Shown here in pieces: positions 19,567-64,000 of a stretch of 64,000 bases of DNA (the first letter of the stretch is position 1; each line of letters starts with the position of its first letter). This DNA is from an uncultured virus (IMG/VR IMGVR_UViG_3300025864_000013) (lineage: Duplodnaviria; Heunggongvirae; Uroviricota; Caudoviricetes), in the IMG/VR virus record IMGVR_UViG_3300025864_000013; one strand, 5' to 3'. The translations under genes were made by a program, and so were the position numbers. A model generated the notes under the pieces. It saw nothing but the letters and a program-made list of their open reading frames with translations, did not search any database and had not been told where the DNA came from.

Positions 19567-19567
19567 T

Positions 19568-20461: not shown

Positions 20462-20463
20462 CC

Positions 20464-20829: not shown

Positions 20830-20834
20830 GCATT

Positions 20835-21254
20835 ATGAATATTTCGGATATAAAAATCGGAGATTTCGCTAAAGCGAAACGTCTCGTCCTGCAAAAAGAT
20901 GTTAACGACTTTATTTCTCTTAGTGGCGACAATAATAAACTACACATAGATCCGGCCTATGCAGGAAACACTTATCTTCAGGGGCCTGTTGTTCATGGAA
21001 TGTTTGGAATGGCCCTTATCTCTGCCGTGATAGGAACCCAGCTACCCGGCGACGGTGCTCTATGGTTTAGTCAGGAGACATCTTTTACTAAACCCATAAA
21101 AGTAGGCGACTACCTTACAATAGAGGTTAGGGTTATTGATAAACATATATCTTTGCAATATATTAAGCTCAAAACGCTGGTTATAAACCAAAATAATGAT
21201 ATTTGCATAACAGGTACGGCACTTGTAAGATTAATACCACAAGATCATGAATAA
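20835..21254 (+). CDS. MaoC-like (R)-hydratase/dehydratase
   Basis: SGDNNKLH...VHGM...LPG...F.KP. Confidence 0.9.
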   Translation: MNISDIKIGDFAKAKRLVLQKDVNDFISLSGDNNKLHIDPAYAGNTYLQGPVVHGMFGMALISAVIGTQLPGDGALWFSQETSFTKPIKVGDYLTIEVRVIDKHISLQYIKLKTLVINQNNDICITGTALVRLIPQDHE

Positions 21255-22260: not shown

Positions 22261-22480
22261 AATAATCCGGCAAATAATGGCAGAGAGTTTTGATATTCCT
22301 GTCGAACAAATTACCCCAGACTCAAATGATCATAATATTGAGGGATGGGACTCGCTGCACCATATCAGAATGATTGTGGCACTCGAAAGGAAATTTGATA
22401 TTACTATTCCCGATGAAGAGGTCGGCAATATGGTAAGTTATAAATTCATTGAACAGGTAATAAATAAATTGATATTATGA
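22253..22480 (+). CDS. acyl carrier protein
   Basis: WDSLHH phosphopantetheine serine; ATG 22253. Confidence 0.9.
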   Translation: MNEIIRQIMAESFDIPVEQITPDSNDHNIEGWDSLHHIRMIVALERKFDITIPDEEVGNMVSYKFIEQVINKLIL

Positions 22481-23067
22481 CAAAAACAGAACATAAATTT
22501 CCGTGCCTGATTTGTGGCGAGTTTATCACACTTTCAAAAGTGATGGAGAAAGACGCTAATTTTATTTATGGATTGCGTAAAAATGAAGCTGCTCAATATC
22601 TTAATTGTCCGGTGAATTATTCTATTGAATCGCAATTAGCCTGGCAAAATTCCAGAACTAGTGATGAGGTAAATTATATAATCTATGATAATGAAGGTTA
22701 TAAGGTCGGCATGGTATCAATATATGATTGCGACTGGTTGAATGGCGTGTCTAATGTAGGTAGGCTATTGCTCAGTAATCAATTTGTCCACAAATCAACT
22801 CCTTACGGATTAGAGGCATTGCAGCTAACCTATGCTTATGTATTAGAGCAAATGAAATTCCGGAAGATTGCCGGCACAATAAATACCCGCAACGAAAAGG
22901 TTTACAGCCTTCAGAAATACTTAGGCATGAAGGATGAGGGATTGTTTGTTAAGCATGTTCTCTTAAACGGAGTACCACAGGACTTACACTTCCTTTCTTT
23001 ATTTGCTGAAGATTTTCCGGCATACGCTGAAAATATTCAAAAACTACTTGAAAAATTCAGGCAATGA
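22477..23067 (+). CDS. GNAT/RimJ-like N-acyltransferase
   Basis: PseH-like layout, N.KV.SL.K.LGMK.EG. Confidence 0.8.
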   Translation: MTKTEHKFPCLICGEFITLSKVMEKDANFIYGLRKNEAAQYLNCPVNYSIESQLAWQNSRTSDEVNYIIYDNEGYKVGMVSIYDCDWLNGVSNVGRLLLSNQFVHKSTPYGLEALQLTYAYVLEQMKFRKIAGTINTRNEKVYSLQKYLGMKDEGLFVKHVLLNGVPQDLHFLSLFAEDFPAYAENIQKLLEKFRQ

Positions 23068-23477
23068 AAAGTAGCGTAAGGGACTGTAAATTCATAAACC
23101 TGCAGACCGTGCTTAGGGATGAAGGCAGTATGTCTATTGCGGAACAGGATAAAGAGATCCCATTTGTAGTAAGGAGGGTATATTACATTTACAATGTTCC
23201 CGACACCGGCAATAGGGGCTTTCATGCTCACAAAGGACTCTATCAAATGATTATTCCGGTACATGGTTGGTTTCACATAAAGCTCGACGACGGTACTGAA
23301 AAGAGAATTATACAACTTTTTGATCCGACAAAAGGACTTTTGATCGTACCAGGAATATGGCGGGAGCTTTCGGACTTTACAAACGATGCTGTATGCCTGG
23401 CTTTAGCCTCAGAGAAATATAACGAATCGGATTATATAAGAAATTATACGGACTTTTTAAAATTCAAATCAATATGA
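23064..23477 (+). CDS. fdtA: dTDP-6-deoxy-3,4-keto-hexulose isomerase (FdtA/QdtA cupin)
   Basis: RVYYIY..P....RGFHAHK...Y.ESDYIR.Y..F. Confidence 0.9.
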   Translation: MKSSVRDCKFINLQTVLRDEGSMSIAEQDKEIPFVVRRVYYIYNVPDTGNRGFHAHKGLYQMIIPVHGWFHIKLDDGTEKRIIQLFDPTKGLLIVPGIWRELSDFTNDAVCLALASEKYNESDYIRNYTDFLKFKSI

Positions 23478-25492
23478 TAACTGCCCTTTGCGTAAACTAC
23501 AATACGCCCGGACTACTGGAAAGATTATTAACCAGTTTCAGGAGATACTACCCTGATATTTCTTTCCTTGTCATTGATGGATCTGATCAGGCTTATTACA
23601 ACCAGATAAGAGATTTCCCGAAAAGGTTCAATGTAGAGTTGAAACACTTTGATTTCAATATTCATCACGGCCCAGGCATGGCGTATGGAATAAGACAGAT
23701 TAAAACAGATCAGATATTGCTACTCGATACTGATATTATAGTACTCCGCGGCGGGTGGATAGAATTATTACAACAAAGACTACTGCCAGATAATTACGGG
23801 ATAGGGGATATTCAGAAAGAATCATTCATGAGAGGCGGGAGAAAAGAAGTAATAGACTATCTTCATCCGGCATGCGCCCTGGTTAACAGAAAAGTAATTC
23901 TGCAATATCCATTGCCTACCAAGGCCGGATGTCCTTTAATGGATGCAATGGTTAATATCTATCAGAACAGAAAAGATATATTGCAAAAATCAGACCTTAT
24001 AACAAATGACTTTTGGAATCATACGGATATTTATATTCAGCACGGCCACGATCATAAAGGAATGGGCACGGTCGTAAAAACAGGAGGTTATCATTATGAA
24101 CCGGAGAAAGGTAAAAAAGAAGGAGCAATAATCGACACAATAGGAATAGTCATTGCTACCTTTCAGAGGCCGGACGGCAAAACACCTTATTACCTTAACC
24201 GTACCCTCGAATCAATAGAGGCGCAAACATTCAAGGATTACAGGGTCTATGTTATGGGTGATGCCTACACTGATGATGATGAGTTAAGGGAAATAACTTC
24301 AAAGTTCAGTAATGTAATAACACACAACCTCGATAAGTCAGTAGAAAGAGAACGCTACCCCAAAGGAGGTCAATACCTTTGGTGTTGTGGAGGTGTCACA
24401 GCTGCAAATAAAGGAATTGATTATGCACTAGCTGATGGTATTGAATATATCTGCCATCAGGGCCATGATGACACCTGGGAGCCTAACCACTTAGAATTGA
24501 TAAATAAAGTTATTCGGGAGAAACACCCTTTCTTTATATGCACATCTGCTTCTTACGGCTTAGGCCATTTACCTCCACATCCGCTGACAAACGATGTTGT
24601 GCCTTACCTTCCGGTTCCTGCCGGGGTAATTGCATCCAGCGTGTGTATAAAATATACTGAAACAAAGCTGAGGGTAATGGATCGCTTTCATGAAGAAGGA
24701 ATAATGTCACCCTCTGATGCCTACCTATGGGAGTGTATGGATAAGGAAATGATAAAAGAGGATAAAAAAGGATTCTTGATAACTACATTAACCTGCCGTC
24801 ACGATGAAGAAGGATATGTACTTAATGGAGGTGATTTTAAGTCAAGTGCAGTCATTAAAAAGAAAGATGAAAAACCGCAGTCGGTTATTTCTGAGGTAAC
24901 TGCTATTATTACAACTCGTAATAATCTAAAGGACTTTAAGAAGTGCTATAAGTCGATTAAAAAGTTTCATGCCGAAATACCGGTAATAATCATTGACCAG
25001 TCTGAGATTACTGATAAATGTTGCGACTATGTTTGCTCATTAAATTTAAACCCCGGCAATGTTACATCAGTTCTATTTGGCGAATATATAGGCACGGGAA
25101 AGGCACTAAGAGCAGGTATTAGCATGGTGGGGACAAAGTACGCAATGATTGTTGATAGCTGTATGGAGATGAAGAAAAGTCCAATTCCTGAGATGCTGAA
25201 ATTAATGGAACTGAATACTTTCGCAATAGGAGAACTGGAGTTGCATGATTCATGCGGAGTGACTTACGGGAATAGCGAGCTTTCATCAGACGAAACGCCT
25301 ACCTTATCATTTAAAAATTATCCATTCTTTCAATTGATAAATATTGGAAACTATAAGAAGTTCCCGGCTTATGTAAATCATGAATCTCCTTGGTTCAAGG
25401 CTATGAATGAAATAAAGAAACAGGGATTGTCCTCAAAGATATTAAAGACGTTCCCTGTTACCCGAAGTAAAATGAATGATTATGTAGAATAA
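23474..25492 (+). CDS. three-domain GT2 glycosyltransferase
   Basis: three GT-A repeats (LLDTD, GHDD, IVDS). Confidence 0.8.
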   Translation: MITALCVNYNTPGLLERLLTSFRRYYPDISFLVIDGSDQAYYNQIRDFPKRFNVELKHFDFNIHHGPGMAYGIRQIKTDQILLLDTDIIVLRGGWIELLQQRLLPDNYGIGDIQKESFMRGGRKEVIDYLHPACALVNRKVILQYPLPTKAGCPLMDAMVNIYQNRKDILQKSDLITNDFWNHTDIYIQHGHDHKGMGTVVKTGGYHYEPEKGKKEGAIIDTIGIVIATFQRPDGKTPYYLNRTLESIEAQTFKDYRVYVMGDAYTDDDELREITSKFSNVITHNLDKSVERERYPKGGQYLWCCGGVTAANKGIDYALADGIEYICHQGHDDTWEPNHLELINKVIREKHPFFICTSASYGLGHLPPHPLTNDVVPYLPVPAGVIASSVCIKYTETKLRVMDRFHEEGIMSPSDAYLWECMDKEMIKEDKKGFLITTLTCRHDEEGYVLNGGDFKSSAVIKKKDEKPQSVISEVTAIITTRNNLKDFKKCYKSIKKFHAEIPVIIIDQSEITDKCCDYVCSLNLNPGNVTSVLFGEYIGTGKALRAGISMVGTKYAMIVDSCMEMKKSPIPEMLKLMELNTFAIGELELHDSCGVTYGNSELSSDETPTLSFKNYPFFQLINIGNYKKFPAYVNHESPWFKAMNEIKKQGLSSKILKTFPVTRSKMNDYVE

Positions 25493-28657: not shown

Positions 28658-29575
28658 TTAAATCGGACTTGGGAAATTCTCCCTTATCCTAGTATTAATA
28701 ACTCCAATATGTTTCTTCACATAATGCTGCGTTGCCTCTAATTTGGTGTGTCTCAACTGATCCATAAGTTCACGCATAGAAATACCAGACATATGAAGCC
28801 TGGAAGCTCCGGTGTGTTTAAATGAGTATAACTTATACCCTTTCGATAAATTCAAATGATCCCTTATGATGTCAAACCGATAACGAAGCATATTGATAGA
28901 GCATGGTTTTGTACCAAACCGCTTTTTGTTTCCAAAAATAAATAAACTATTATCTGCTTTGTCAATCCCATACTCAAAACAAATATCAATAAGTTGCTGT
29001 GGCATCGTAACGCTCTGTTGGAGTTTATTCTTTGCATTCTCCTGTCGAACCATGATTAGTCCGTTATGAAGATCAATATCTCCAACCTTCAGCAACCTTA
29101 ATTCCTTGCCGGGTCGAATGAAACAATAGTACTGAATGATACAAGCCAAATACAACTGAGGATCGAGTCTTTTAATTTCCGGGAGTAATATTTTTAAGTC
29201 CTCTAGCTGGATTACTTCTGCGCCCTGGTCTTTTTTCTTTCTATGAAAAACAACTAAATCAAAAGGCATAATATCTACTTCTCCTCTTTTTTGAGCATAA
29301 GTGAAAAGCTGTCGAATATTTAAGAAGTACTTTTGACATGTAGGTTTATCAAGACCTTTGTCTCTTGCAAGAAAGTAAAAGAAATCAGAAACAGTCTGTG
29401 GTGTAATTTTCCTAATTGATAAATTACCACACCCATGTTCTTTTAACCAATCAGTAAAGACAGGAAGTTGACCTGCATATGTCATATAAGATTTATGCTG
29501 AATACCAACCTCCTTTTCAAGAAGAAATCCCGGTAAAAGTTCTGCTGGTGTCTTATATTTTCTAAAAATCTCCAT
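28658..29575 (-). CDS. tyrosine recombinase (no arm-binding domain)
   Basis: FIRPGKELR, AK, YSFKHTG, QLRH...TQHY. Confidence 0.9.
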   Translation of the reverse strand: MEIFRKYKTPAELLPGFLLEKEVGIQHKSYMTYAGQLPVFTDWLKEHGCGNLSIRKITPQTVSDFFYFLARDKGLDKPTCQKYFLNIRQLFTYAQKRGEVDIMPFDLVVFHRKKKDQGAEVIQLEDLKILLPEIKRLDPQLYLACIIQYYCFIRPGKELRLLKVGDIDLHNGLIMVRQENAKNKLQQSVTMPQQLIDICFEYGIDKADNSLFIFGNKKRFGTKPCSINMLRYRFDIIRDHLNLSKGYKLYSFKHTGASRLHMSGISMRELMDQLRHTKLEATQHYVKKHIGVINTRIRENFPSPI

Positions 29576-46754: not shown

Positions 46755-47051
46755 TTATTCTGGCATTTTAAGATAAGAATTTTCAACTGGAGGTAAATTC
46801 ATTATGTCTTGTCTAATTTTATCCAAAATAAAATAACGAGCATAATACCTATGTGTCATACAGGTGTAATGAAAATCCATCGCACTCATTGAACCTATTT
46901 CATCTTTCGAAAGTTCCTTGTCACACACAGCGCAAGTATGTTGCCTGCCATAAACAAAATTATCTTGGATTATCTTTACTGTTTCTTTTATCAGATCAAT
47001 ATTTTCTCTATGCTGATCTGCAAACTCCTGTAATGTAATTGGTTTTTCCAT
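46755..47051 (-). CDS. zinc-finger hypothetical protein
   Basis: CAVC...CMTH. Confidence 0.55.
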   Translation of the reverse strand: MEKPITLQEFADQHRENIDLIKETVKIIQDNFVYGRQHTCAVCDKELSKDEIGSMSAMDFHYTCMTHRYYARYFILDKIRQDIMNLPPVENSYLKMPE

Positions 47052-47053
47052 GG

Positions 47054-47476
47054 TTATTCAGCGTTAAATTTTTGAAATACTTTGTTGTACGATTCTGCAA
47101 AGCCACGATTTTTCTTTGGGTCGTTAATCCAGTCCTCCGCGTCTTTAATATAATAAGCTACTGAGCGAAGCGATACATTCCCTAGTAGTTTTGCAATAAC
47201 GGGCTGTGGAAGGTTTATCTTACCGAAAGCAATAAAGGATATTACCCTCTTAGCATCTGTACATTCGGTTATTGACTGTCGGTGCATGTCGGCCAACGTA
47301 ATGTTAAAAGCCTGACAAGATAGTTTTTCGAGCTTCTTAAACTGCCGGAACTTATAAGGGCCTCCCAGGCAATCAAATTCATCAATCCATTCAATAAGCT
47401 GTTCGGCTCCATATTGGATGATGAATTGCTGTATTTTTAATTCGAGTGTTGACTTATTATTACTATTCTCTTCCAT
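47054..47476 (-). CDS. DnaA domain-IV-like HTH protein
   Basis: FNITLADM...DAKRVISFI...IAKLLG.VS.RSVAY. Confidence 0.6.
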   Translation of the reverse strand: MEENSNNKSTLELKIQQFIIQYGAEQLIEWIDEFDCLGGPYKFRQFKKLEKLSCQAFNITLADMHRQSITECTDAKRVISFIAFGKINLPQPVIAKLLGNVSLRSVAYYIKDAEDWINDPKKNRGFAESYNKVFQKFNAE

Positions 47477-47496
47477 ATAGAATGAGGTTAAGAGGA

Positions 47497-47593
47497 AAGG
47501 ACTCGTGCCGTAAAACCTGACCGACAGTCAGGGGTGTAGGCTGACCTGTCTTTAAAAACTAGGCATCGGCATTTTCGAACGGCACTCGTCCTT
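47497..47593 (-). ncRNA. unidentified structured RNA element
   Basis: AAGGAC-GA-GUGCCGU / ACGGCAC-GA-GUCCUU closing stem with internal hairpins. Confidence 0.55.
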
Positions 47594-48296
47594 AGATTTT
47601 ATTACCATCAACACTGATGATTTTATATATTCTGTATAGGTAAATTTTTTGCAGGTAAACGCCTTCAATCTCCATGTCGCTTCCGGTAGGGTTAATGCCA
47701 AAGGCTTTCAGATCCTCATAAGTAAATTCCCTTTTCTTTGCCCCTGATAGTTTGTCGCGCAGCGTTTCTGCTTTCGGTGCGGGTTTTTCGGCTTCAATGC
47801 GAGCTTCAATAAGGCTTATGAGTTCAGGATAATCTTTGTATTTTTCGAGCAGGTCAGAGAGAGAGGCGTATTCCCATGCTTTTATCTCTGCCTGTGCTTC
47901 AGCTGTGAATTGTTCTTGCTGGTTGTCCGTGGTTGCTTTCTGTACTTTGTCGATGCGCTTCTGGATAAAATCAGTAAGTTCCGGCAGGTGTGCAAATTTA
48001 GTTTGTAGGGATATAAGCGTTTCGAGTGTTTCCGCATCAGCTATTTCGTTCTTTGCTTCTGCTACTTCCTTACCGTGCTTAGCTTCTTTAACCTCAATGT
48101 TCTCTTCTTCGGTGAAGGTATGTAATTCATTAAAGGACTTAACAAGCTCATCGTCCCATGTTTTTATTTCTTCGTCCGAAAGCTCATTGTTCTTTACTTT
48201 CGTTTCAAACTCGGTTGCTTTCTGCACAAAGGCAGGATCGAGAACAGGATTATTTAATTTAATTTCCCATTTCTCCATTAATTTTCTGTATTCCAT
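47592..48296 (-). CDS. acidic helical protein (scaffold-like)
   Basis: E/K-rich helical repeats. Confidence 0.6.
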   Translation of the reverse strand: MEYRKLMEKWEIKLNNPVLDPAFVQKATEFETKVKNNELSDEEIKTWDDELVKSFNELHTFTEEENIEVKEAKHGKEVAEAKNEIADAETLETLISLQTKFAHLPELTDFIQKRIDKVQKATTDNQQEQFTAEAQAEIKAWEYASLSDLLEKYKDYPELISLIEARIEAEKPAPKAETLRDKLSGAKKREFTYEDLKAFGINPTGSDMEIEGVYLQKIYLYRIYKIISVDGNKI

Positions 48297-48327
48297 AATA
48301 TTTGGTGTTAAAGGTTTTGAGTAAAAG

Positions 48328-48360
48328 CAAATATATATTATTTATAACGATTCCAAATAA
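48328..48360 (-). promoter_or_regulatory. TAnnTTTG promoter with adjacent operator box
   Basis: TATATTTG (48335-48328) and ttatttataacgattccaaataa (48338-48360). Confidence 0.6.
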
Positions 48361-48386
48361 TAATTGAGAATATATTTTTATCAAAG

Positions 48387-48417
48387 AAAAAAGCAACCTA
48401 CTATCTTCGGTTGCTTT
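48387..48417 (-). terminator. terminator closing the tmRNA-like RNA
   Basis: aaagcaacc-gaagatagta-ggttgcttt-ttt. Confidence 0.75.
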
Positions 48418-48533
48418 AGTCGCTCTAAGCTGCTGCCTGAAGCTGTGTTCTTTCGAACATGTTTATTGTTTTGCCATTTAGGACTTTAGTTCTCCATTAC
48501 TGCCATACATCTTGTCAAAACCAAGTCATCCCC
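48387..48533 (-). ncRNA. ssrA: tmRNA-like coding (5') half with tag GKTINMFERTQLQAAA
   Basis: 5' GGGGATGACTTGGTTTTGAC; resume context TAAAT-GGC; tag ends QAAA-stop; no T-arm or CCA half. Confidence 0.75.
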
Positions 48534-48647
48534 GAATAAGCACTCAATAAAGAACCTGTTATATTACCGCTATGCAAATAAAAAAACCACTATGTAGCGA
48601 TAGAGGTTTTAATGTCAGTTAAGTTTGAAAACAGAACTGTATATCTG

Positions 48648-48729
48648 CGGGGCAATCTATCCATTCCGGAAAGCCTTAATAAATACTGTTTGGCCTAACA
48701 TCATTTATAAAAACCTTGTCAATTGCCCC
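48648..48729 (-). ncRNA. long irregular hairpin, possible small RNA
   Basis: GGGGCAAT...ATTGCCCC closing stem around a long inner stem; upstream TAAATTTG promoter at 48834-48827. Confidence 0.4.
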
Positions 48730-48840
48730 TTCTCTGGGTGGTTTCTTTGCTGCTGCCGCTTACATGGCGTTTAAGTTTTAATGACTTTTAGTCAGATACA
48801 AAATTTTGCAATCTGAAATTGATATGCAAATTTATTTAAT

Positions 48841-48872
48841 AAAAAAGCCCTGTAAATTAATACAGGGCTTTT
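48841..48872. terminator. bidirectional intrinsic terminator
   Basis: aaaaaagccctgta-aattaa-tacagggctttt. Confidence 0.85.
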
Positions 48873-48897
48873 CCTATGAATGAAGAATCTTTTGTAT

Positions 48898-49308
48898 TTA
48901 AGAATGTCTGGACGTGGCCCCGCCCTGGGAGATTATTTCTCCAATGTCAAGCCGGAAGCCCCCATTTATATTCAGATTTACTCCTTTATCGGATAGCTCA
49001 TTATTTGTGTTAATTGATCTTTGCCAAGTATGACTATAATTATCAATACGACACATCAGAATGTTTTGACTTTTAAAATTAGTTAAGAGTACATCATTAG
49101 TCAGACCCTTATAAGGTACACTGACCCCTCTGACAATCTGATAATCGGTAACAGCCGGAGAAACGGCAATCATTTGGTTTGTGTTCTGATCTATGGTTAA
49201 CGAGTAACCTACATCTTTTACAACATCTTTTTTGTCGGGTGACTTAAAAGAGGTTGCCATAAATGAGACCAGTAGGAAAGCGAGCAATGTCGCAAAAAAC
49301 TTTTTCAT
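48898..49308 (-). CDS. exported protein (moron-like)
   Basis: MKKFFATLLAFLLVSFMATSF signal peptide; followed by its own terminator. Confidence 0.65.
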   Translation of the reverse strand: MKKFFATLLAFLLVSFMATSFKSPDKKDVVKDVGYSLTIDQNTNQMIAVSPAVTDYQIVRGVSVPYKGLTNDVLLTNFKSQNILMCRIDNYSHTWQRSINTNNELSDKGVNLNINGGFRLDIGEIISQGGATSRHS

Positions 49309-49398
49309 ACTTTTCTTTTTTTTGGTTAATACTAATTGCAATTAGTCGATAATTAGACTGTAAATATAAAACAGATAATTTACTCCACCAAATTTATT

Positions 49399-49764
49399 TT
49401 AACTCAATACCAATCCCGGCTCTTCCTGTTCGAAATAAAATAACAGATCCATCTCACTTAATGGCTCCAAGTCTGTTTCAAAGTATGTCTGACCGTCGAG
49501 TAGTATGGGCGGGTTTAGTGGCACGTCGAGTATCAGTGCTGTAAAGTCTTTAGCATTGGCAAAGTTACGGAGTGAAATATCCCTGTTCGACTGTGAACCA
49601 AATGAGGTTACGTTTCTGATCTTAATAGAATTGTTTATCTGGCTCGCATCAGTCATTATAACCTTCATCGAGTAAGCGAGTATCGGGTTGCTTAAAAATT
49701 CCCTTGCACTCTGCTTATAAGCATCGTCGCCTACGTTGTCTAATATGATTACTGTGCCGTCCAT
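49399..49764 (-). CDS. capsid-protein paralog (C-terminal part of fold)
   Basis: YKQSAREFLSNPI...QINNSIKI....FGS...LRNF.N aligns to 43369..44043. Confidence 0.6.
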   Translation of the reverse strand: MDGTVIILDNVGDDAYKQSAREFLSNPILAYSMKVIMTDASQINNSIKIRNVTSFGSQSNRDISLRNFANAKDFTALILDVPLNPPILLDGQTYFETDLEPLSEMDLLFYFEQEEPGLVLS

Positions 49765-49773
49765 AGTATTTTC

Positions 49774-50898
49774 TTAAATGTCTCTCATACAACGAACTGT
49801 AAATCCATAGTTTTTAGTGGAATGATAACCCCAACCTATATTAATACCTAAATGAATAACATCCATGATTATTGCCTCCGTAGAACTGTTTTCATTTGAA
49901 CATACTAACTCACCATATTCATTTATTTGTACAAAAGTTCCCTCACCTAAACGACTACCTGCTCCTATCAAATTAAATCCAACTTCATTGGTCGCTCCTG
50001 TATTTGGATCATTCCAATGACTTAATCCAACTTCTTTTAATTTACCTCCCGCAATAGCATTTCCTCCGAGTGCCAAAATTAATGTATTAAAGTCTGTCTC
50101 ACTTGGTACTCTCCATCCTGTAGGTGCAAGACCATGTGCATTATCTACTGCATACCAGTTATATAATGCACCATAGGGTGTTTTATTTGCTATGTCGTTA
50201 TTATACCAACAGGATGCACCATCATGTCCACCACTACCATTTTCTGCATTCCAATCAGCATCAAGTGTAAGATTAGGTATTGGCGTTCCATCAGCATACT
50301 TAGTAGTCTTTAGATTCTCTACAAGCCATTGCTGTGTGCCTATTGTAACCCAATGATAAATATTGCCATCCGTATCTGTCACAAAATCTATTACAGGAGT
50401 TGGTGCTGGAACAGGATCAAAAGGAACCGAATCTTGTGTAGTATCAAGTATCTGAACGGTTTCTTTTACCGCCGTGCTATTGATAAGCCGGAATGTGATA
50501 GTCTTTTTATTAATATTTTGAATAGCCTCTGCTTGTTTCGTGTCGGAATACTCTTGTGCCTGCTGCTCTGCATAGTCACTGCCGTAACCATTTGGACTAT
50601 CTGCATACACACTGCCATCGCCACGGAAACAGGTTCCTTTTGGAATATTAAGCGTTCCGCCTCTCTGAATATCAAATGGGGCTAATGGCTTATAAATAAA
50701 CTCCTCACATGGCACGGGGTTACATTTAAAAGGATCAACATTGCAATTATCAACTTCTGGATCTATTGTAGGTTTTGTAACTGGCGGTGATATCGTAGAC
50801 AGTTTGCGCTTGTTATAGCCCGTCCACAGCCAATAGATAAGCACAATAACCGCAATTACTTCTAACGTATAATTCTTCTTTTTACCCTCTGCCGCCAT
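49774..50898 (-). CDS. TM-anchored protein with FISUMP (Fib_succ_major) domain
   Basis: DGNIY..VTIG.Q.W..ENL, YGALYNWYA, P.GWRVPS, GFTVRC. Confidence 0.85.
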   Translation of the reverse strand: MAAEGKKKNYTLEVIAVIVLIYWLWTGYNKRKLSTISPPVTKPTIDPEVDNCNVDPFKCNPVPCEEFIYKPLAPFDIQRGGTLNIPKGTCFRGDGSVYADSPNGYGSDYAEQQAQEYSDTKQAEAIQNINKKTITFRLINSTAVKETVQILDTTQDSVPFDPVPAPTPVIDFVTDTDGNIYHWVTIGTQQWLVENLKTTKYADGTPIPNLTLDADWNAENGSGGHDGASCWYNNDIANKTPYGALYNWYAVDNAHGLAPTGWRVPSETDFNTLILALGGNAIAGGKLKEVGLSHWNDPNTGATNEVGFNLIGAGSRLGEGTFVQINEYGELVCSNENSSTEAIIMDVIHLGINIGWGYHSTKNYGFTVRCMRDI

Positions 50899-52243: not shown

Positions 52244-55200
52244 TTATGATAAATTTAAGATTTCAATTAATTCAATTTCTGCCTGTGCTTCCGCTTCTGC
52301 TCTTTTACGCTTGGTATCTTTTTGAGTCGGTTCGTGGTCAAAATAACCACGTCCTGTTAATAGGTCAACCCCTCCATGTTCAATAACAGTCTGTGTCATT
52401 CCGTCAACCATCATAAACCCGTCGGCCTTATATCTTAATTCGTCAAACGCCTTCGAGCCTCTCTCGTTAGCTTCGTCAACAACTGACATCGGTACATACC
52501 TGCCAAACTTTCCGTCCTTGCTTCCATTTACATATCTTTCGAGTGTGCGTTTGCGGGAAACATCCCAAGGGACTTTCACATAGATCATAAATATCTCATA
52601 GCCCAAATGTTTCAATGATGCAATTAACGGGAGATAGTTATCTGCTTTATTCATTGTCCCATCCCAAAGAATATCAAACCGGCATGGCTTACCTTCAGAA
52701 ATATCATTAAGAAGGCCCATATAAATATCGCGGGTTTCTTTGTGAGTAGCTTTCGAGTTCCATCCATGGTATTCCGGCAACATGGATCTTATCTCATCCG
52801 CATCAATCTTAAAGATTTTCTCTTTCAATAAGTTCGGTGCATATTTTTTTAGGAATGTTGTTTTACCGGAGCCTGGCACGCCTCCCATTAATATTGCCAG
52901 TGGCTTATCATTTGGAACAACACAAGCCATGCCTGCACGTAGTTTACCTTTGATGACCTTATGAAGTTTTTCTCTGGCCTCGGTATATTCGCCTTCCGGT
53001 GTCAGATTCATATCCTTTGTCTGTGGAACCCTTTCAAGGCAACTTTCAAGACTCTTAATTCCTTCCGGTGAAACATCAGGTTTGCCTTCACTTGTTATCG
53101 GAGGACAACCCGCAATCTTAACCTGTCTGAAATCTTCTGAATGAGAAATGTTACTCTTAATGCCTAATAAGTAGTTGAGTTTCTGGAACTCATCAACACG
53201 CTCTTCTACGGATGCAATCTTAATTTTCTTACTTTTGCGCTCCCTGTCAATCTCTGCTGCCCTTTCGTCAAGATAGTCCGCGCTCTTCAACCGATTCATA
53301 TCTTCCTGCATCCTGCGCTTTTGCTCGGTCTGCTCATCAATGAATACCTGCACGGCCTCTTTGTAGTCTGCAATATGATACCTGTCAAGAAATGATTTGC
53401 GAGCCTTTTTAAGCATTATGACTGCGCTCTTCATATTGCCGTATGAATACGACCTATTTAGCGAGAAGTCGTAATTGATAAACTCATACTCGTAGCGGTT
53501 TTGAGCCTTTGATCTTAATATAGATTGAAACTCTCTTTCTTTTTCCTTACTCCCTTCTTGCTCTTTAAGCAGTCCCTCAAACTCTTTTGCCATTACATCA
53601 ATACTGGAATACTCTTTGCCCGGCTGAAGGATTGAAAGAATCTTCATTAACTCTTTTTCAAACTTGGTTCGCTTATCAAAGAAACTAATCACGTTCAATG
53701 CGGTATTGACAAGATTTTCGACATTAGCAATCTCTTCACCGATCTTTGTCTCTTCTCCTTCTACTTCCAGTTCAGCGATAACCCGTGGATTAGTGACGAG
53801 CCTTAATTTTTGTTCGCGCGGATCAAGCTCTTCAACTTTCAGTACGTTACTTACCCCGTCATGGTTCCAGATGCTATTTATACGCTCTGTCTTCTGTTCG
53901 AGCTTCTCAAACATGAATATATCCATTGAGTCACTCATCATTGGAAGTACAATACGGACATTGCTAAAAGTATTCCCCTGTCGCCATATACGGCCTTCTA
54001 ACTGAATCTCATCAGTCGGGTTCCAATCAACAAAGGCATTATATAAAACTGTTGAATATCTGTTCAGGTTCAGTCCTTCACGTATTGAAGATGTTCCGAT
54101 AATGACTTTTATCCTTTGCTCCTCAGACAGGTCGTCGAATAGCTTTGTAGCCTCATTAAAGGCCATGCCGTTAAAACCATTTTTTACAAAGTCCTTATGT
54201 TTTGCCGTTCCTTCTTTGCCTGACCGGATAATGCCTATCTCGTGCGCCTTGTAACCAACTACATTGACCAGATAATCTTTGAGTAACTCAAAATACTTTT
54301 TACCACGATCCATATAGATAACCTGCCCGGAAACAATGGTTTTATTATCTTCATGCCATTTTTTCACCGAAGCCACACAACCCATGATGTATTTCAGCTT
54401 TGGAGACTTCTCAACATAATTTTTATAGTCCGGTGCGCCTAATCCTGAAAACTCGTAAAGATATGGTGACAATGCGAGCGACCGGGCAAAGTTAACACCC
54501 CTGAGAGTCTTAACCCCTGCTTTTTCATTGTCGTCCAAAGAACCCTCGTCAAGTAATGTTTCTTCGCTCTCTTCTCCTTCTTCGTCATCATTATCATCAA
54601 GACGGCTCATTCCTCTTTTTGCAAGGTCGCTGTAAGAAATAGTACCCTCCACATAAGAAATAATCTCTTCCATCATTGATTTCTGTTCACTGGTCAAAGG
54701 AAGCACGGTATCAATCAGTTCATCTTCTGTTGCCGGAAGAAACTCATTCTTTGTATTAAACCTACCTTTATATGGAAGCACCCATTTGTCAGGACGTACA
54801 AGCGCAATGATATTGCCGTTTGCATCTGCTTTACCTGCCTCTTTATGAAGCATGTACTTATAGACAAGTTTCTGAAGCGACTGCAGGTTGTCAAATGCTT
54901 TAAATATCTGTTTTCTGATTGGCTGCAACTTGCTATTGATAACAAGTTCATAGCTCATCTGACAGTAGTTATCAAAAAAATCGTTTATGTTCGATAATCC
55001 TATTGAATCCAGATAAGGATAAGCCACAAGTGAAAGCATTGAATAAACCTCCAAAGGACTGTTTGTAAACGGTGTTGCTGTAAGAAGCATCACGTTACGG
55101 CCCTGATTCAATCCCTGAATATAAGAACAGAGCATGTATGCCTTAATACCACGTGTTGAAGTGCTGCCTGAAATTTCATACATCTTCTTACCACGCTTTT

Positions 55201-57130
55201 CTTCTTCATCGCCTCCCTTACCTGGTTTTGCTTTTACCTGAGAAAATATATTCTTTAATGCGTGCGCTTCATCAAATCCTGCAAAGTCAAATCCTAAGTC
55301 TTCAATATTAGTACTTGTTCTCTGTAATGCCTTTCCGATAAGCCCTTCGAGTTTTTCACCCTGTCTTACGCCTGCCTTTTGTCCTTTCTTGGTCGATAAG
55401 TCCTGAATCTGCGATAATGCCTTGTCGAGCCTGCTGAGTAATATGCTTGCAGTATCTTCTTTAAACCCGATCCTCTCAAATCCTTCGTATGTCAATATTG
55501 AAATACTGCCTTCTTCTACCATCTGAATTTCTCCGTTCTCATCCAGTAGCTTATCGTAGTAATCCTTTGAAAGGTTATAAAGGTCATTCAGTTTTTTATG
55601 TGGCAACAGTCCGTGCATCTCTGCATAAAACTGTTTATATACCTGATTAGGCACAACAAGAAATGGCCTCTTGCATAATCCGGCATCAAGAAATTGAGCA
55701 ACGGTAAAACAAAAACTTGGCGTCTTACCAACGCCAACCTGGTAAGCATTAAGGCTCGACCCTCTTATACTTGCGAAAGCAATCGCCTCACGTTTTTCCG
55801 GCTCAATAACCATAGTCTCATTACCCCAATAACTCAAAGCAACTTCAAATGCTACCGGGATCTTTTCAGTGCGGAGTCCACGGTTTGAGTTAAACCTTTC
55901 GTTCCACGCTGTTTCGATTAACACCCTGTCGTTTTCGAGTATTATCTCAGCAAGGAATTTTGAGAATAGCTTATCACCTGTTTCTTTTGCCAAAGCCCTG
56001 TTACGTGCTATAACGGTCGGGTCAAGATTTTTGACGGCCTTTTTATCTAGGTAATATTTAAAAATATCCTCCCAGAGAAAGTTATATGGAAGATCAGGAC
56101 GGTTAGGGTCATGCTTCAGCCAGTGACGGAAAGCATCAGCAATACTTAGTTTCTCTCTTTTAGTATCTCTCCATTCTGATAACGAAGTCTTTTTGCTATA
56201 CCAGTTTATATTACCGTCACCACCGATAACAACTATGAATGGGGCAGGCTCGCCAGTGTCGTTCTTTAAATTCCAGTTCTTTATCTCAATACTCTTTGAA
56301 AAATCCCCGTAAGGTTTCAGATGCAACCGTTTTTCCGGATCTGGATCATCCAGTTTTAATCTTTTCTGGTAAATCTCATTGAAAGCTTCTTTTAGCTTTA
56401 TTTCGTGAGCATCACAAGCTGGCTGACCATAGATACTAATAATATCCGATTTATCATTTTCAAACTGTGATTTACGGTCATATAGATTCTCTGACAGGTA
56501 GACGAATGCAGGAAGAAGCTCGCCTTTGTAGTAAAAGAGAATACCGGACTTAACCCAGCTCTGTATGTACGCGGACTCCTGTTCTGATGAAAGGAGTGTA
56601 GGATTGAGAATATTGAGCCATTTGCCCCGGTAGGTATTTCCCTGAGAGTGCATATACCACAGGAAAGCCTTTACTTCTTCATCAGTCAATCCCTTGTTAT
56701 AATTACGGTAAATATCCTCAAATGGTATTGTCGGAGCCGCTGATGGCTCGTCAAATTCTGTTATCTCGCGTTTCTTTGATCTTTGTGTCTTGACAATATC
56801 CTGCTCTGACTTTATGAGATTCTCTTCGGTTGTGTCGTCCGGCTGTATAGTCGGTTTTGTTACTTCAGGAGAAAGTATGACAGACTGCCCGGCTGATAAA
56901 TCAGTAATGCCATGTGCAATGAATACAGGAGTCTCAATCTCTTTTAAAGCATCGGAAGGAGTTAATGCGCCTTTCTTTGGACGGTATTTTGTCACCATAC
57001 CCCACTGACCAGATGCCTCGTAAGACTCGGCCAGTATTTTGTCGGGGTTGGCTTTAAAGAATGAACCACCGGATAAAGAAAATTCCTTTTCAATGATCTG
57101 AGGTTCCTGGGTTATTGTTAAGTCTGCCAT
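52244..57130 (-). CDS. DarB-like SNF2 helicase fused to zeta-toxin-like kinase
   Basis: VGVGKT, FDEAH, LTATP, EGLNL, QLEGRIWRQG; C-terminal GGVPGSGKTT, IDADEIR, GRYVP. Confidence 0.85.
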   Translation of the reverse strand: MADLTITQEPQIIEKEFSLSGGSFFKANPDKILAESYEASGQWGMVTKYRPKKGALTPSDALKEIETPVFIAHGITDLSAGQSVILSPEVTKPTIQPDDTTEENLIKSEQDIVKTQRSKKREITEFDEPSAAPTIPFEDIYRNYNKGLTDEEVKAFLWYMHSQGNTYRGKWLNILNPTLLSSEQESAYIQSWVKSGILFYYKGELLPAFVYLSENLYDRKSQFENDKSDIISIYGQPACDAHEIKLKEAFNEIYQKRLKLDDPDPEKRLHLKPYGDFSKSIEIKNWNLKNDTGEPAPFIVVIGGDGNINWYSKKTSLSEWRDTKREKLSIADAFRHWLKHDPNRPDLPYNFLWEDIFKYYLDKKAVKNLDPTVIARNRALAKETGDKLFSKFLAEIILENDRVLIETAWNERFNSNRGLRTEKIPVAFEVALSYWGNETMVIEPEKREAIAFASIRGSSLNAYQVGVGKTPSFCFTVAQFLDAGLCKRPFLVVPNQVYKQFYAEMHGLLPHKKLNDLYNLSKDYYDKLLDENGEIQMVEEGSISILTYEGFERIGFKEDTASILLSRLDKALSQIQDLSTKKGQKAGVRQGEKLEGLIGKALQRTSTNIEDLGFDFAGFDEAHALKNIFSQVKAKPGKGGDEEEKRGKKMYEISGSTSTRGIKAYMLCSYIQGLNQGRNVMLLTATPFTNSPLEVYSMLSLVAYPYLDSIGLSNINDFFDNYCQMSYELVINSKLQPIRKQIFKAFDNLQSLQKLVYKYMLHKEAGKADANGNIIALVRPDKWVLPYKGRFNTKNEFLPATEDELIDTVLPLTSEQKSMMEEIISYVEGTISYSDLAKRGMSRLDDNDDEEGEESEETLLDEGSLDDNEKAGVKTLRGVNFARSLALSPYLYEFSGLGAPDYKNYVEKSPKLKYIMGCVASVKKWHEDNKTIVSGQVIYMDRGKKYFELLKDYLVNVVGYKAHEIGIIRSGKEGTAKHKDFVKNGFNGMAFNEATKLFDDLSEEQRIKVIIGTSSIREGLNLNRYSTVLYNAFVDWNPTDEIQLEGRIWRQGNTFSNVRIVLPMMSDSMDIFMFEKLEQKTERINSIWNHDGVSNVLKVEELDPREQKLRLVTNPRVIAELEVEGEETKIGEEIANVENLVNTALNVISFFDKRTKFEKELMKILSILQPGKEYSSIDVMAKEFEGLLKEQEGSKEKEREFQSILRSKAQNRYEYEFINYDFSLNRSYSYGNMKSAVIMLKKARKSFLDRYHIADYKEAVQVFIDEQTEQKRRMQEDMNRLKSADYLDERAAEIDRERKSKKIKIASVEERVDEFQKLNYLLGIKSNISHSEDFRQVKIAGCPPITSEGKPDVSPEGIKSLESCLERVPQTKDMNLTPEGEYTEAREKLHKVIKGKLRAGMACVVPNDKPLAILMGGVPGSGKTTFLKKYAPNLLKEKIFKIDADEIRSMLPEYHGWNSKATHKETRDIYMGLLNDISEGKPCRFDILWDGTMNKADNYLPLIASLKHLGYEIFMIYVKVPWDVSRKRTLERYVNGSKDGKFGRYVPMSVVDEANERGSKAFDELRYKADGFMMVDGMTQTVIEHGGVDLLTGRGYFDHEPTQKDTKRKRAEAEAQAEIELIEILNLS

Positions 57131-60953: not shown

Positions 60954-61424
60954 TTAAATCATTACTTTATTTATAAATAATCCTATTATCACTGTCACGA
61001 AAGCGGCCACCTCAATCCACCATGCCGTATTCTTATTTTTCCAAAGTATAAATCCGGTAGCGAGTAACATTGGCACAACCAAATACCACTGATGAAAATT
61101 AAGCCACAACATCAACATTCCGACTGCTATTCCAGCATCAGCACCAAAATTATGGATGAATTGAGTTAACTTATCTCCGCTACCAGTTCTTGCTGCACCG
61201 TCAAAGCAAAGTAAACTACCTGCAATCATTCCTAAAGCATTGTCAGTGATAAGAATAATAGGAATTGATATTCCCCACATGAATAGTGTGTAATAAGCCT
61301 CCTGTGATTGTTTAAATAGTAGATAGCTACTAGAAATAGAAGGCTGAACACCCCATCTCTTTACTACCATTAAAACGTACCAAAGAAATACCGCTATTGT
61401 GAAAATCAATCCTGCTATTATCAT
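60954..61424 (-). CDS. multi-pass membrane protein
   Basis: PSISSSY...H...WWIE; five to six TM segments. Confidence 0.7.
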   Translation of the reverse strand: MIIAGLIFTIAVFLWYVLMVVKRWGVQPSISSSYLLFKQSQEAYYTLFMWGISIPIILITDNALGMIAGSLLCFDGAARTGSGDKLTQFIHNFGADAGIAVGMLMLWLNFHQWYLVVPMLLATGFILWKNKNTAWWIEVAAFVTVIIGLFINKVMI

Positions 61425-63958
61425 AATTTTATTTTTTTACGAAATATTAGTATATCCGAAACAACATTTGTTCTTCCAAAGATTCCTTCCGGTAGCCTGT
61501 AAGCATCAATCAGTTTCCCTTTCTCTGCAATAGCCTGCTTACATTTACTATCACCTTGGTCAAGCCATAGCTTCCCTCCGGCTGCTACTTCCGCACCGAC
61601 AATGTAAATAAGTAAACCGTCTTTTTTTAGTAAGTCAAGGCCCCGGAATATGAAGTAATCAATGTAATTCTTTGCATGAGAATAACGACCTTCACCCATA
61701 CCCATCTCTCTTCCGCTAACTTCCATGTAAGGAGGGTTGCCTATAACCAGGTCGTGAGTAGGCTTCGGTATTTTTGCGCCTATGGTGTAGTTGTTCTTTG
61801 TGAATACCATTTCAAACTTCATTGAGTCGGCTCCGTCATTGACAATAACATCAGGGTAGAGAATCTTCGTTATCCTTGCGGAATATTTATTTAGTTCATA
61901 CGCTGTTTTGCGCTGTACGGACGACAATACATAACGAGGGTCAAAAAAGATACCTACTCCAACAGATGGCTCACAAACCGATTCAATAGCAAATTTACGG
62001 TGCTTATCAGCGAGTCCCCACATCTTTGCTACAATAGCATCAGGAGTGTAAAACTCATACATGCTTTTCAGTAATTCTTCATTGCCTGTAACTTCTTTTA
62101 AACCACCATAACCGGAATAAGCCCTGATAAAATCGTGTTTATCATCAAAGAATGAAGTATCGTACCAATGTTCATCCAGAGCTTTCTCAATATCTTTGTT
62201 TAGCTCATATTCTGACGTGTAGTCGGAGAGGGTGTAAGAAATTGATTTACCTTCTTCTTTTATGAGAGTTTGAACATAATCTTCTAGCCCGGTGTCGGCT
62301 AGTTGTTTTTCCGTAAGATCAGGGAATATGTCTTTTACTTCGGGTTTGCTAATTCTTGCCGGATGAATTATTTTACGTAATGCTTTCTTTATACTCTCGT
62401 CACGTCCAGAAAGAAATTCGCCGCCTTCCTTTAAATCATTATATGCCTCTGTAATCACATTCTTAATTTCATCTTTTATGGTTTGTTTATCCGGCATTTC
62501 TTTGAAGAAATTACCCGCATCGTAATTGCCATTTTCCCCAAGACTTTCAGGATAACCTATTGTCATTTCATAACGCCATCCATCAACATACATCGGATCT
62601 GTTTTTGTTATGACCTCGATTTTATAAGAAGCATCAAGTTCTGACACTTGCTGCCATTCGTTAAAAGTTATTTTTGGCTCACTCCACGCATCTTCCGGTA
62701 TAGCTGCAACTTCTTCTTCCGTCTGTGTCGGGTATGTCATTTCTTCGGAGACAATGGCGACTTCCGGATCTGTAATATTATTACCCTCTCTTTTTTCCCA
62801 TAATGGAGTGCCTGTTTCTTTAATATATGCGCCTTGATTCTCTATTAACTTCTCTACCCTTAATTGTCGCTCTTGTTCTAAGTTCGGTTCATCATTCCGT
62901 ACTTCTTTTTCTGCATCAAATAAAATACCTTTTAATTCTTTTGCTTTTTCTGCTAAATACAACCATCCTTCGCTTCGTTTCATTTCCACGGCGTATGCGG
63001 GAAGTGTCTTTATGTATTCACCTCCTGTGTTAATCCATTGTGCTATTTCTGCGGTTATAGCTAAAGATTTATCTTCCCATTCAGCAATTTGCCTATCTAT
63101 GGCTTTTTTGAGTTTTTCAGCAGTATTATAATTTGGGTTTTCTTCTACAATAGCCAAGTCCCTGTCAAAATATTCATTATGAACATCAAAGTTATGATTT
63201 ATAAAGCTTACTATCGCTCTATCAATACCGTATGGTGAATGGTTTTTTAATACATGAACAACCGTTGGGTTATTTTTTTCTTCCTGCTCATTCCGTACTT
63301 CTTTTTCCATAGCGTTTGCCAATTCGTGTGCATCATCGTAAGATAATCCTTCGTCCCGCATCTTACCTATTTCAAATAGTTCATGTTTGATTGTGGCCTC
63401 CATATCAGCGGGTTTATCCTTTTGGTTGTCGTCAATCCAGACTTCATCCTTATTCGGAATCCAGTCGTAAACAAAGCCGTGGCCGCCTGAAACAAATTCA
63501 ATATGATCCTTTCGGACTTGCTCTCCGTCAACCAAATAAAGTCTCATCCCTTCCTGTTCACGTAAAAAGACTTTATGGTAATCGGGTTCCGGCTTAAATT
63601 CATACTTCGGAATACCACCTATAATAATATGATCTTTGATAAAATCTTTTTTAGGCTGTAATTCCGGATATTCGCTTCTTATATTCTCTGGAACTGGATT
63701 GCCTTGTGCGATTGCTTCTTTAATAATATCCAGATGATTGCCATATTGTTTTTCAAGTTGTTCGCGAGTAACTGGATGTTGATTCTTCATATGATACTCC
63801 ATTTGCTCATCAATGAATTGATCCAATGGCTTACCTACTGTCTTTTCAGTAGCGTCACGGTATTCTTTTGCTGTCATTTGCCACGGCTCTTTCATTTTAC
63901 CGTAATCCGGCTGAATAACATCGAGTGGCACTTTTGTATCACTTTCTTTGCTTACCAT
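61421..63958 (-). CDS. polyvalent protein with C-terminal N6-adenine methyltransferase and zincin-like HExxE module
   Basis: EFYTP, EPSVGVG, VIGNPPY, DILIFRK; KHELFE...AH. Confidence 0.85.
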   Translation of the reverse strand: MVSKESDTKVPLDVIQPDYGKMKEPWQMTAKEYRDATEKTVGKPLDQFIDEQMEYHMKNQHPVTREQLEKQYGNHLDIIKEAIAQGNPVPENIRSEYPELQPKKDFIKDHIIIGGIPKYEFKPEPDYHKVFLREQEGMRLYLVDGEQVRKDHIEFVSGGHGFVYDWIPNKDEVWIDDNQKDKPADMEATIKHELFEIGKMRDEGLSYDDAHELANAMEKEVRNEQEEKNNPTVVHVLKNHSPYGIDRAIVSFINHNFDVHNEYFDRDLAIVEENPNYNTAEKLKKAIDRQIAEWEDKSLAITAEIAQWINTGGEYIKTLPAYAVEMKRSEGWLYLAEKAKELKGILFDAEKEVRNDEPNLEQERQLRVEKLIENQGAYIKETGTPLWEKREGNNITDPEVAIVSEEMTYPTQTEEEVAAIPEDAWSEPKITFNEWQQVSELDASYKIEVITKTDPMYVDGWRYEMTIGYPESLGENGNYDAGNFFKEMPDKQTIKDEIKNVITEAYNDLKEGGEFLSGRDESIKKALRKIIHPARISKPEVKDIFPDLTEKQLADTGLEDYVQTLIKEEGKSISYTLSDYTSEYELNKDIEKALDEHWYDTSFFDDKHDFIRAYSGYGGLKEVTGNEELLKSMYEFYTPDAIVAKMWGLADKHRKFAIESVCEPSVGVGIFFDPRYVLSSVQRKTAYELNKYSARITKILYPDVIVNDGADSMKFEMVFTKNNYTIGAKIPKPTHDLVIGNPPYMEVSGREMGMGEGRYSHAKNYIDYFIFRGLDLLKKDGLLIYIVGAEVAAGGKLWLDQGDSKCKQAIAEKGKLIDAYRLPEGIFGRTNVVSDILIFRKKIKL

Positions 63959-64000
63959 ATCACTTCCCTCAATCAGTTTTTTATCCGTTTCACTTACTCC

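Follow-up and report, generated by a model that had tools for sequence, protein, structure and literature searches.

The DNA analyzed here is a stretch of 64,000 nucleotides (nt), hereafter the window, from an uncultured member of the Caudoviricetes (IMG/VR record IMGVR_UViG_3300025864_000013). It is a phage-like element of the Bacteroidota type and comes from a peat metagenome. On its minus strand, from 48533 to 48387, the letters read directly as the 5' end of a transfer-messenger RNA (tmRNA), a tag reading frame and a terminator. By its sequence, this element genuinely belongs to one lineage of short two-piece (circularly permuted) tmRNAs of uncultured Bacteroidota-associated phages and prophages. 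Genes of this lineage consist of an acceptor piece followed by a coding piece, and only the coding piece is found in the window.

Anatomy of the coding piece

Two minus-strand open reading frames (ORFs; 48898-49341 and 47592-48296) of unassigned function flank the 601-nt gap that holds the element. It opens at 48533 with GGGGATGACTTGGTTTTGAC, and the resume context and codon, TAAAT-GGC, are reached 38 bases later. Its features are as follows:

48527..48533, minus strand: 5' strand of the acceptor stem, GGGGAUG, with G1 at 48533 and G3 present; the expected partner is CAUCUCC
48514..48526, minus strand: D-loop analogue, ACUUGGUUUUGAC, conserved in the family and aligning to the RF04321 consensus
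48476..48513, minus strand: strand that in relatives is the helix P2 partner of the 5' part of the acceptor piece, in several segments; its 3' end is the resume context UAAAU
48425..48475, minus strand: tag reading frame GKTINMFERTQLQAAA and stop codon TAG, aligning with the tags of the 18 other members of alignment A2
48387..48414, minus strand: terminator hairpin GCAACC, loop GAAGAUAGUA, GGUUGC and U6, with the loop kept in relatives L052 and L038

The original prediction, made from the letters of the window, had placed a tmRNA 5' acceptor strand with G3 and a D-loop analogue on this strand, and it was correct to the base. The acceptor strand runs into the D-loop analogue (..UGGUUUYGAC) as in RF04321, the Rfam family of permuted tmRNAs, to whose model positions 84-171 the element aligns. 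Within the D-loop analogue, columns T11, G12, G13, T16, G18, A19, C20 and A21 of alignment A2 are invariant or nearly so. We assigned the P2 strand from a consensus fold of acceptor and coding pieces together with pairings judged by eye; the stretch 48476-48513 is near-identical to L052 and L055. The resume context, tag frame and stop are likewise present as had been described: the resume codon GGC occupies 48475-48473, the tag frame has 16 codons and the stop TAG lies at 48427-48425. The predicted intrinsic terminator begins 10 bases past the stop, with GCAACC at 48414-48409, loop GAAGATAGTA, GGTTGC at 48398-48393 and six T at 48392-48387. Taken alone, the coding piece folds somewhat better than shuffled sequence (z -2.27).

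Standard RNA searches did not recognize the element. ARAGORN called no tRNA or tmRNA gene in the 64-kb window, nor any in 47001-50500 with its thresholds lowered to 80%. Rfam gave no match at gathering score across the 64 kb, and at E values of up to 10 the 17 weak matches in 47500-49500 included none to a tmRNA family. When the element was cut out and truncated alignments were allowed, it scored 12.3 bits against RF04321 (E 0.8, model positions 84-171) and 5.7 bits against RF00023 (E 1.2); neither score is significant alone, and the former does not reach the RF04321 gathering score of 47 bits. The pseudoknots and the 3' tRNA-like half that follow the tag in one-piece tmRNAs (RF00023) were not found downstream of the tag, where the terminator stands 10 nt past the stop. 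A scan for sigma-70-type promoters remained at chance level (3 sites, with 2.8 expected). The consensus terminator scan did not call the element's own terminator because its loop of 10 exceeds the limit of that scan.

A lineage of short two-piece tmRNAs

The nearest relatives of the window are L052, L038 and L055. In blastn searches the coding piece of L052 was 84% identical to the window over 157 nt (E 1.6e-39), and L055 was 90% identical over the first 79 nt (E 2.4e-23). Both loci are complete two-piece tmRNA genes, and this homology supports the assignment of the element to the permuted, two-piece type. L055 comes from a Bacteroidales metagenome-assembled genome (MAG; JALHSP010000072.1), L052 and L038 are metagenome contigs, and L007 and L012, two further relatives, are IMG/VR contigs.

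Motif searches delimited the lineage. IMG/VR contains the element's exact 5' 20-mer a single time, where it begins a full-length one-piece phage tmRNA (L001) with a tag ending in ELALAA and a normal 3' end. A slightly degenerate form of the 5' motif retrieved five loci: L003 and L006 are one-piece tmRNAs, and the other three (L004, L005 and L007) resemble the window in their short 5' part, tag and hairpin. ARAGORN calls L007 a permuted tmRNA with the tag GKTIQMFNQPLRMVA. A pattern for the tag start matched 24 viral loci, seven with a tmRNA 5' motif and 17 in unrelated coding sequence. With a combined pattern, metagenomes yielded 21 loci, of which 18 are family members and three are unrelated, and bacterial assemblies yielded three, in a Sunxiuqinia indica isolate (NZ_WVEM01000017.1) and two Bacteroidales MAGs. 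Removal of duplicates from the viral and metagenome loci left 18 distinct members, with spacers of 53-267 nt between the two pieces. Members occur both in complete phage genomes of 44-75 kb and in Bacteroidales or Sunxiuqinia assemblies, and every relative tested against RF04321 (seven of seven) passed its gathering score, at 56-74 bits against 47.

The tags of the lineage read GKTI, one of Q, E, N or K, and MF, followed by 8-9 residues that mostly end in LRAVA, LRMVA, LKAAA or similar. Those of L052 (GKTINMFERTQLKAVA), L038 (GKTINMFERTQLRLVA), L055 (GKTIKMFTQPLRMVA) and L012 (GKTIQMFPQQLRAVA) differ from the window's tag at codons that are partly synonymous. Conservation in homologs, which the original prediction had proposed as a check, extends to the tag frame and the 5' motif in all 18 other members of alignment A2 and to the terminator loop in L052 and L038. 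Around that shared loop the terminator stem has changed at each of its positions, with full compensation (GGGGCT/AGCCCC in L052, GGAGAGT/ACTCTCC in L038). L052, L038, L055, L007 and L012 thus share with the window the 5' strand, D-loop analogue, P2 strands, resume context, GKTI.MF... tags and a hairpin past the stop, and the first two also share the loop GAAGAUAGUA. Unlike the window, all five have an acceptor piece 43-267 nt upstream, and those tested passed RF04321. The element is not a scrap of host ssrA, because its tag, resume context and terminator match the phage two-piece lineage.

The order of parts is the same in all relatives: about 35 nt, GGAC (GCAC in L052), a 5-base-pair (bp) T-stem with a loop such as TTCGACT, CAnCTCC, AC, the spacer and then the coding piece. 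CAnCTCC, the 3' acceptor strand, complements each member's own GGGGnTG with a G3:U pair; relatives that share GGGGAUG with the window, namely L011, L038 and L049, have CATCTCC in their acceptor pieces. In a consensus fold of both pieces the acceptor stem and T-arm were recovered, along with the first P2 pairs that join one piece to the other, and by eye the region from GAC to the resume codon pairs in two to three further segments with the 35 nt before GGAC. No pseudoknot was identified in the lineage, and the coding piece ends in a hairpin straight past the stop.

Several further observations concern these loci. A small hairpin is conserved in the spacers of L052, L038, L011, L026 and L055, a short way past the 3' end of the acceptor piece; it takes the form GTTAAYCCGTCACGWTAGTACGG (CTGTCGCGTAAGTACAG in L055) and may signal processing. 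T-arm-like sequences, GGTTCAATTCC and GGTTCGACTCC, stand in the spacers of L005 and L052. Just before the acceptor piece of L004, at 423-495, lies a tRNA with an undetermined 2-base anticodon, and a tRNA-like 3' end is found directly upstream of the tmRNA gene of L053. The one-piece tmRNAs L001/L006 and L003 carry the window's 5' 20- or 21-mer and GACAGC, but have a normal 3' end and long tags (...ELALAA, ...ELAFAAS); they and the two-piece lineage may both derive from a Bacteroidota-type tmRNA. The 165-kb contig JGI24728J21555_1000008 holds the same tmRNA gene three times (L037, L041 and L051) at a spacing of 69,649 nt, and looks like a concatemer assembly of an approximately 69.4-kb phage (G001) that bears L007 and has direct terminal repeats.

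The acceptor piece is kept in relatives and absent from the window

An acceptor piece (T-arm, CAnCUCC and AC) lies 43-267 nt upstream of the coding piece in all 31 related loci examined. All 10 viral loci have it, as do all 18 metagenome family loci (17 detected with the pattern, L052 by inspection) and all three loci in bacterial assemblies. Each of five whole viral records searched, three of them rated 100% complete at 44-75 kb, contains exactly one acceptor piece, which adjoins the coding piece. L052 had been considered as a second acceptor-less example and was rejected: its acceptor piece lies about 130 nt upstream and was missed by the pattern because GCAC stands in place of GGAC. The window is the sole acceptor-less case that we found in the lineage.

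The 22-base pattern GGTTCRANTCCNNNCATCTCCA, with up to three mismatches allowed, had no match in the 64 kb. We also built a covariance model of the acceptor piece (R1) from 17 acceptor pieces. Run over the 64 kb with filters off, R1 gave a best score of 14.4 bits (E 0.6), and the four alignments displayed, none with a T-arm, are confined to the model's AT-rich 5' part. On loci outside its own alignment the model scored 64.5 (L053), 67.4 (L055) and 87.7 bits (L054), the last being a locus whose coding piece is close to member L030. L032 and L034, equal or almost equal to member L012, reached 85.3 bits, and even one-piece phage tmRNAs gave 42.8-47.7 bits at their 3' ends. R1 detects both kinds and found none in the 64 kb, so the window has no acceptor piece of a two-piece gene and no 3' half of a one-piece gene. 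The original prediction had seen no T-arm or CAUCUCC-ACCA partner alongside the element, and ARAGORN, the 22-base pattern and R1 were all negative in agreement with it.

The region upstream of G1, where the acceptor piece would be expected, contains the following:

48534..48897, minus strand: intergenic stretch of 364 nt without a T-arm or 3' acceptor strand
48537..48559, minus strand: leader just 5' of G1, ACAGGTTCTTTATTGAGTGCTTA, resembling the end of the L038 spacer at the same position
48580..48606, minus strand: terminator-like hairpin CCTCTAT/ATAGTGG with T7, found by reading and folding; weak and not called by the consensus scan
48827..48834, minus strand: candidate promoter box TAAATTTG, a positional hint only

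Apart from 48559-48537, these 364 nt showed no significant likeness to the acceptor piece or spacer of the family by MAFFT, R1, local alignment or nhmmer; in particular, an nhmmer profile of acceptor piece and spacer from five members found nothing there. The leader is possibly a remnant of the spacer between the pieces. In local alignments its likeness to the end of the L038 spacer was equaled in one of 200 shuffles, which is weak given that it was one of 30 comparisons. Two other candidate remnants were dropped. MAFFT forced TTTTGTATCTGAC onto the family's TTTGTTTGGAC, yet without a T-arm, and a 7-bp complement to the P2 strand near 48795 gained only -6.4 kcal/mol on cofolding.

The promoter box TAAATTTG fits the Bacteroidota -7 promoter motif, TAnnTTTG, which is not enriched in the window (78 matches, with 79.9 expected). 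The terminator-like hairpin sits between this box and the coding piece, and neither consensus nor motif scans revealed a clear promoter directly upstream of the coding piece. Farther upstream, an 81-nt hairpin (48649-48729, minus strand) closed by GGGGCAAT/ATTGCCCC starts with GGGGCAATTGACAAGG, vaguely like a tmRNA 5' end, in a region with a fold z of -2.24. It was not recognized by the tRNA and tmRNA callers and has neither a G3:U pair nor CCA. The hairpin is kept in a related phage described below (X5), where its small side arm, through a 4-nt insertion, has a 4-bp stem and a 7-nt loop. The idea that the GGGGCAAT...ATTGCCCC hairpin is a repeat or mobile element was rejected, with no further copies in the window and none in viral contigs. 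Two small plus-strand ORFs, 48612-48698 (28 aa) and 48625-48774 (49 aa), were rejected as genes because the 4-nt insertion, at 48662 in the X5 contig, breaks both frames.

Independent DNA across the locus

The stretch is present in two peat sequencing runs, which may be its source, and parts of it in six further runs, and none of these eight runs is an RNA run. We compared contigs of four runs over 47300-49700; two of them, X3 and X4, lack a contig across 48384-48849. A 1141-nt contig of run X1 (record 5) matches the window with no differences and extends unbroken from 48444, inside the tag, past G1 and the adjoining 92 nt and on through the upstream region as far as 49584. Because the acceptor-less junction lies inside this single contig, it is no assembly joint.

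Run X5, a soil sample from another study and year, contains a 7937-nt contig of a related phage that is syntenic with the window and 88-93% identical to it. Differences between the two over the aligned segments are distributed as follows:

47307-48005: 50 differences in 699
48118-48318: 22 differences in 201
48416-48535 (coding piece): 12 differences in 120
48628-48846: 18 differences in 219
49101-49225: 10 differences in 125
49301-49700: 48 differences in 400

Directly upstream of the coding piece, in place of the window's 92 letters (48536-48627), X5 has 743 other letters. The likeness between the two breaks 2 nt upstream of G1, exactly at the position expected of the spacer and acceptor piece. 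Neither the 601-nt locus nor the surrounding 20 kb had a match in the phage collection, and the 20 kb had none in plasmids. Among viral contigs, one of three neighboring proteins had a weak match and two had none.

A probable truncated tmRNA gene and its alternatives

The tRNA-like domain of a tmRNA is the recognition surface for SmpB and AlaRS. Because the T-arm and the 3' acceptor strand are missing, the coding piece cannot form this domain; from what is known of trans-translation, there should therefore be no RNase P cut at G1, no charging by AlaRS and no normal SmpB binding. The earlier expectation that the RNA could not be charged alone would thus hold, given that the acceptor piece is absent from its expected place. 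With confidence a little better than even, we favor the view that the window carries a recently truncated, non-functional two-piece tmRNA gene, which could not be charged, and not a new kind of RNA. An intact gene of this lineage would give one precursor, with the acceptor piece first (P2 strand, GGAC, T-arm, CAnCUCC, AC(CA)), then a spacer of 43-267 nt and then the coding piece. The two resulting RNAs would pair through the acceptor stem and P2, be charged with alanine and add a tag of the form GKTI.MF.... The window's phage would descend from one with such a gene and would have lost the acceptor piece and most of the spacer, either by deletion or by an exchange at the conserved 5' end. The remaining piece could still be transcribed up to its own terminator.

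A truncated gene fits better than an RNA designed to stand alone because all 31 related loci keep the acceptor piece and X5 differs from the window exactly there. The absence would accordingly reflect a deletion or replacement, and tmRNA function would probably have been lost with it. The remaining piece has no broken part, which makes the loss look recent. Of 40 columns conserved in 17 or more of the 18 other members, six are changed in the window, compared with zero to three in other GKTI-type members, which suggests, as a mild hint, relaxed constraint. Several points weigh against truncation, however. L055, whose acceptor piece is present, is changed as well at two of these six columns (GACAAA, where the window's change is GACAGC to GACAAG). 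The 5' strand, D-loop analogue, resume codon, 16-codon frame, stop and terminator are all intact, and the coding piece is 10% diverged from X5, compared with 7-12% for flanking genes and spacer, so that it has not decayed faster. The genome is longer than the window, with ORFs running off both ends, and a partner could lie elsewhere. Finally, the 743 letters of X5 could equally be an insertion in the X5 phage.

The last but one of these points leads to the alternative that the acceptor piece lies outside the 64-kb window, or in a co-resident prophage or related phage, and pairs with the coding piece in trans, so that the tmRNA works or swaps tags. An unlinked acceptor piece is conceivable because mature two-piece tmRNAs are two separate RNAs joined only by base pairing, as PMC11915505 and PMC9004378 describe, and the window's piece has every feature for pairing and tagging intact. 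Separated pieces, however, occur in none of the 31 related loci, and the five whole viral records each have their single acceptor piece beside the coding piece. Nor does any acceptor piece in our set fit the window well: the best cofold gain was -8.6 kcal/mol, against a cognate mean of -15.8 (standard deviation 3.2), although such energies are a rough guide that separates cognate (-15.8) from non-cognate pairs (-10.4 kcal/mol) poorly. We consider a distant partner unlikely, and about equally so the more specific idea that the coding piece is kept as an acceptor-less "tag cassette" that pairs in trans with an acceptor piece far off or in a prophage or related phage, with tag pieces being exchangeable. 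Pairing with the 3' half of a one-piece host tmRNA, which the original prediction had raised, found no support. The same holds for its proposal of a designed stand-alone RNA that swaps tags or acts as an SmpB or ribosome decoy, given the 31 relatives with acceptor pieces and the difference from X5 at that very spot. A looser version, in which the RNA took on a new role as a regulator or decoy after loss of the tRNA-like half and disturbs host trans-translation or acts through the conserved terminator loop, would be consistent with the intactness of the piece, with a divergence from X5 no greater than that of neighboring genes and with its better-than-shuffled fold. It has a published mirror case in an RNA of phage DS6A that consists of little beyond a tRNA-like domain, a similar molecule being an inhibitor of tmRNA, according to PMC4131195 and PMC11915505. 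Half of that domain is missing in the window, however, the lineage offers a single acceptor-less example, and the sequence appears in no RNA run among the eight runs that contain it. With a terminator-like hairpin between the sole upstream promoter-like box and the piece and no clear promoter directly upstream, we regard such a role as improbable too, on a par with the tag cassette.

Two further explanations were weighed. An assembler might have joined two phages within conserved tmRNA sequence and so lost the acceptor piece; in X1 the Logan contigs do end within the tag region, where records 1 and 5 share no more than 48444-48473, and other family members of the X1 sample match 48415-48467. 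Yet record 5 spans the acceptor-less junction unbroken and without a difference, and in the X5 contig, which another study produced, the coding piece is bordered by the same genes on either side, which makes such an artifact very improbable. We give even less credence, close to none, to an attP site or a fragment of host ssrA acquired through integration or imprecise excision. A gene's 3' part, not its 5' part, is what integration usually duplicates. The element shares its tag, resume context and terminator with the phage two-piece lineage, and the window's one integrase gene, for a tyrosine integrase (28658-29575), lies about 19 kb away; the att-site remnant that had been named as a possible refutation of the original prediction thus does not apply. 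In favor of such an origin, tmRNA genes are common integration sites and ssrA fragments are known in prophages, as noted in PMC4383910 and PMC9004378.

Genomic context

Proteins encoded in the window include YopX, a tyrosine integrase, a CHAP lysin, DUF285 and Fib_succ_major proteins, a weak terminase-like match and large methylase-helicase proteins, and its G+C content is 33-44%. On the plus strand, 17646-25492 is occupied by a metabolic block unusual for a phage, with a short-chain dehydrogenase, a KAS III (FabH-like) enzyme, a methyltransferase, a DUF1599 protein, a MaoC dehydratase, a HAD hydrolase, a GNAT acetyltransferase, an FdtA-like sugar isomerase and a 672-aa double glycosyltransferase. 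This block could be a sugar or lipid modification cluster. The minus strand encodes, at 52244-57130, a 1628-aa protein with a DarB-like methylase/helicase region and a C-terminal zeta-toxin/AAA_33 kinase domain. A second large minus-strand protein with an Eco57I/N6-methylase region (61421-64000) runs off the window end.

Relation to known systems and implications

According to ARAGORN calls reported in PMC9004378, 53 of 133 unique phage tmRNAs are two-piece, and phage-borne two-piece tmRNAs have been published for marine phages. The two-piece groups named in the portions of PMC9004378, PMC4131195 and PMC11915505 consulted are only the alphaproteobacterial, betaproteobacterial and cyanobacterial ones and their marine phages. 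Judged by titles and the opening of abstracts, none of the papers that full-text searches brought up describes a two-piece lineage of Bacteroidota phages, a search that did not cover the phylum-level table of PMC11915505; in the models and alignments of that paper's supplement, as far as available, Bacteroidota, Phage and Sunxiuqinia are not mentioned.

The window's coding piece resembles the two-piece tmRNAs of Alphaproteobacteria, a betaproteobacterial lineage, cyanobacteria and marine phages (OM43 phage Melnitz; RF04321) in its permuted order and in a coding piece that starts from G1 and carries the tag frame, as these are characterized in PMC9004378 and PMC11915505. Unlike them, the window's lineage is associated with Bacteroidota, has a coding piece of about 145 nt with no pseudoknots identified and ends in an intrinsic terminator; the window, in addition, has no acceptor piece. 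Bacterial tmRNA genes that lack one end are similar in that no tRNA-like domain is possible. These are mostly one-piece genes, however, and integration fragments are 3' parts, whereas the window has the 5' coding piece of a phage two-piece gene that is otherwise intact. The tmRNA-like RNA of mycobacteriophage DS6A is a further case of a phage with only one functional half, as portrayed in parts of PMC4131195 and PMC11915505. [quoted passage not shown]

If the gene is truncated, it would serve as a marker: Bacteroidota phages would acquire, shuffle and lose their short two-piece tmRNA genes, with breaks at the conserved 5' end. The search that started from the window brought out a lineage with at least 18 distinct members. 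Should the coding piece instead be a tag cassette, a tmRNA would be encoded at unlinked loci, or the piece would be a tag-swapping parasite of another element's rescue system. More generally, if a distant partner exists or the piece acts on its own, the halves of a tmRNA would be inherited and used separately, and phages would have a new route to manipulate ribosome rescue and tagging.

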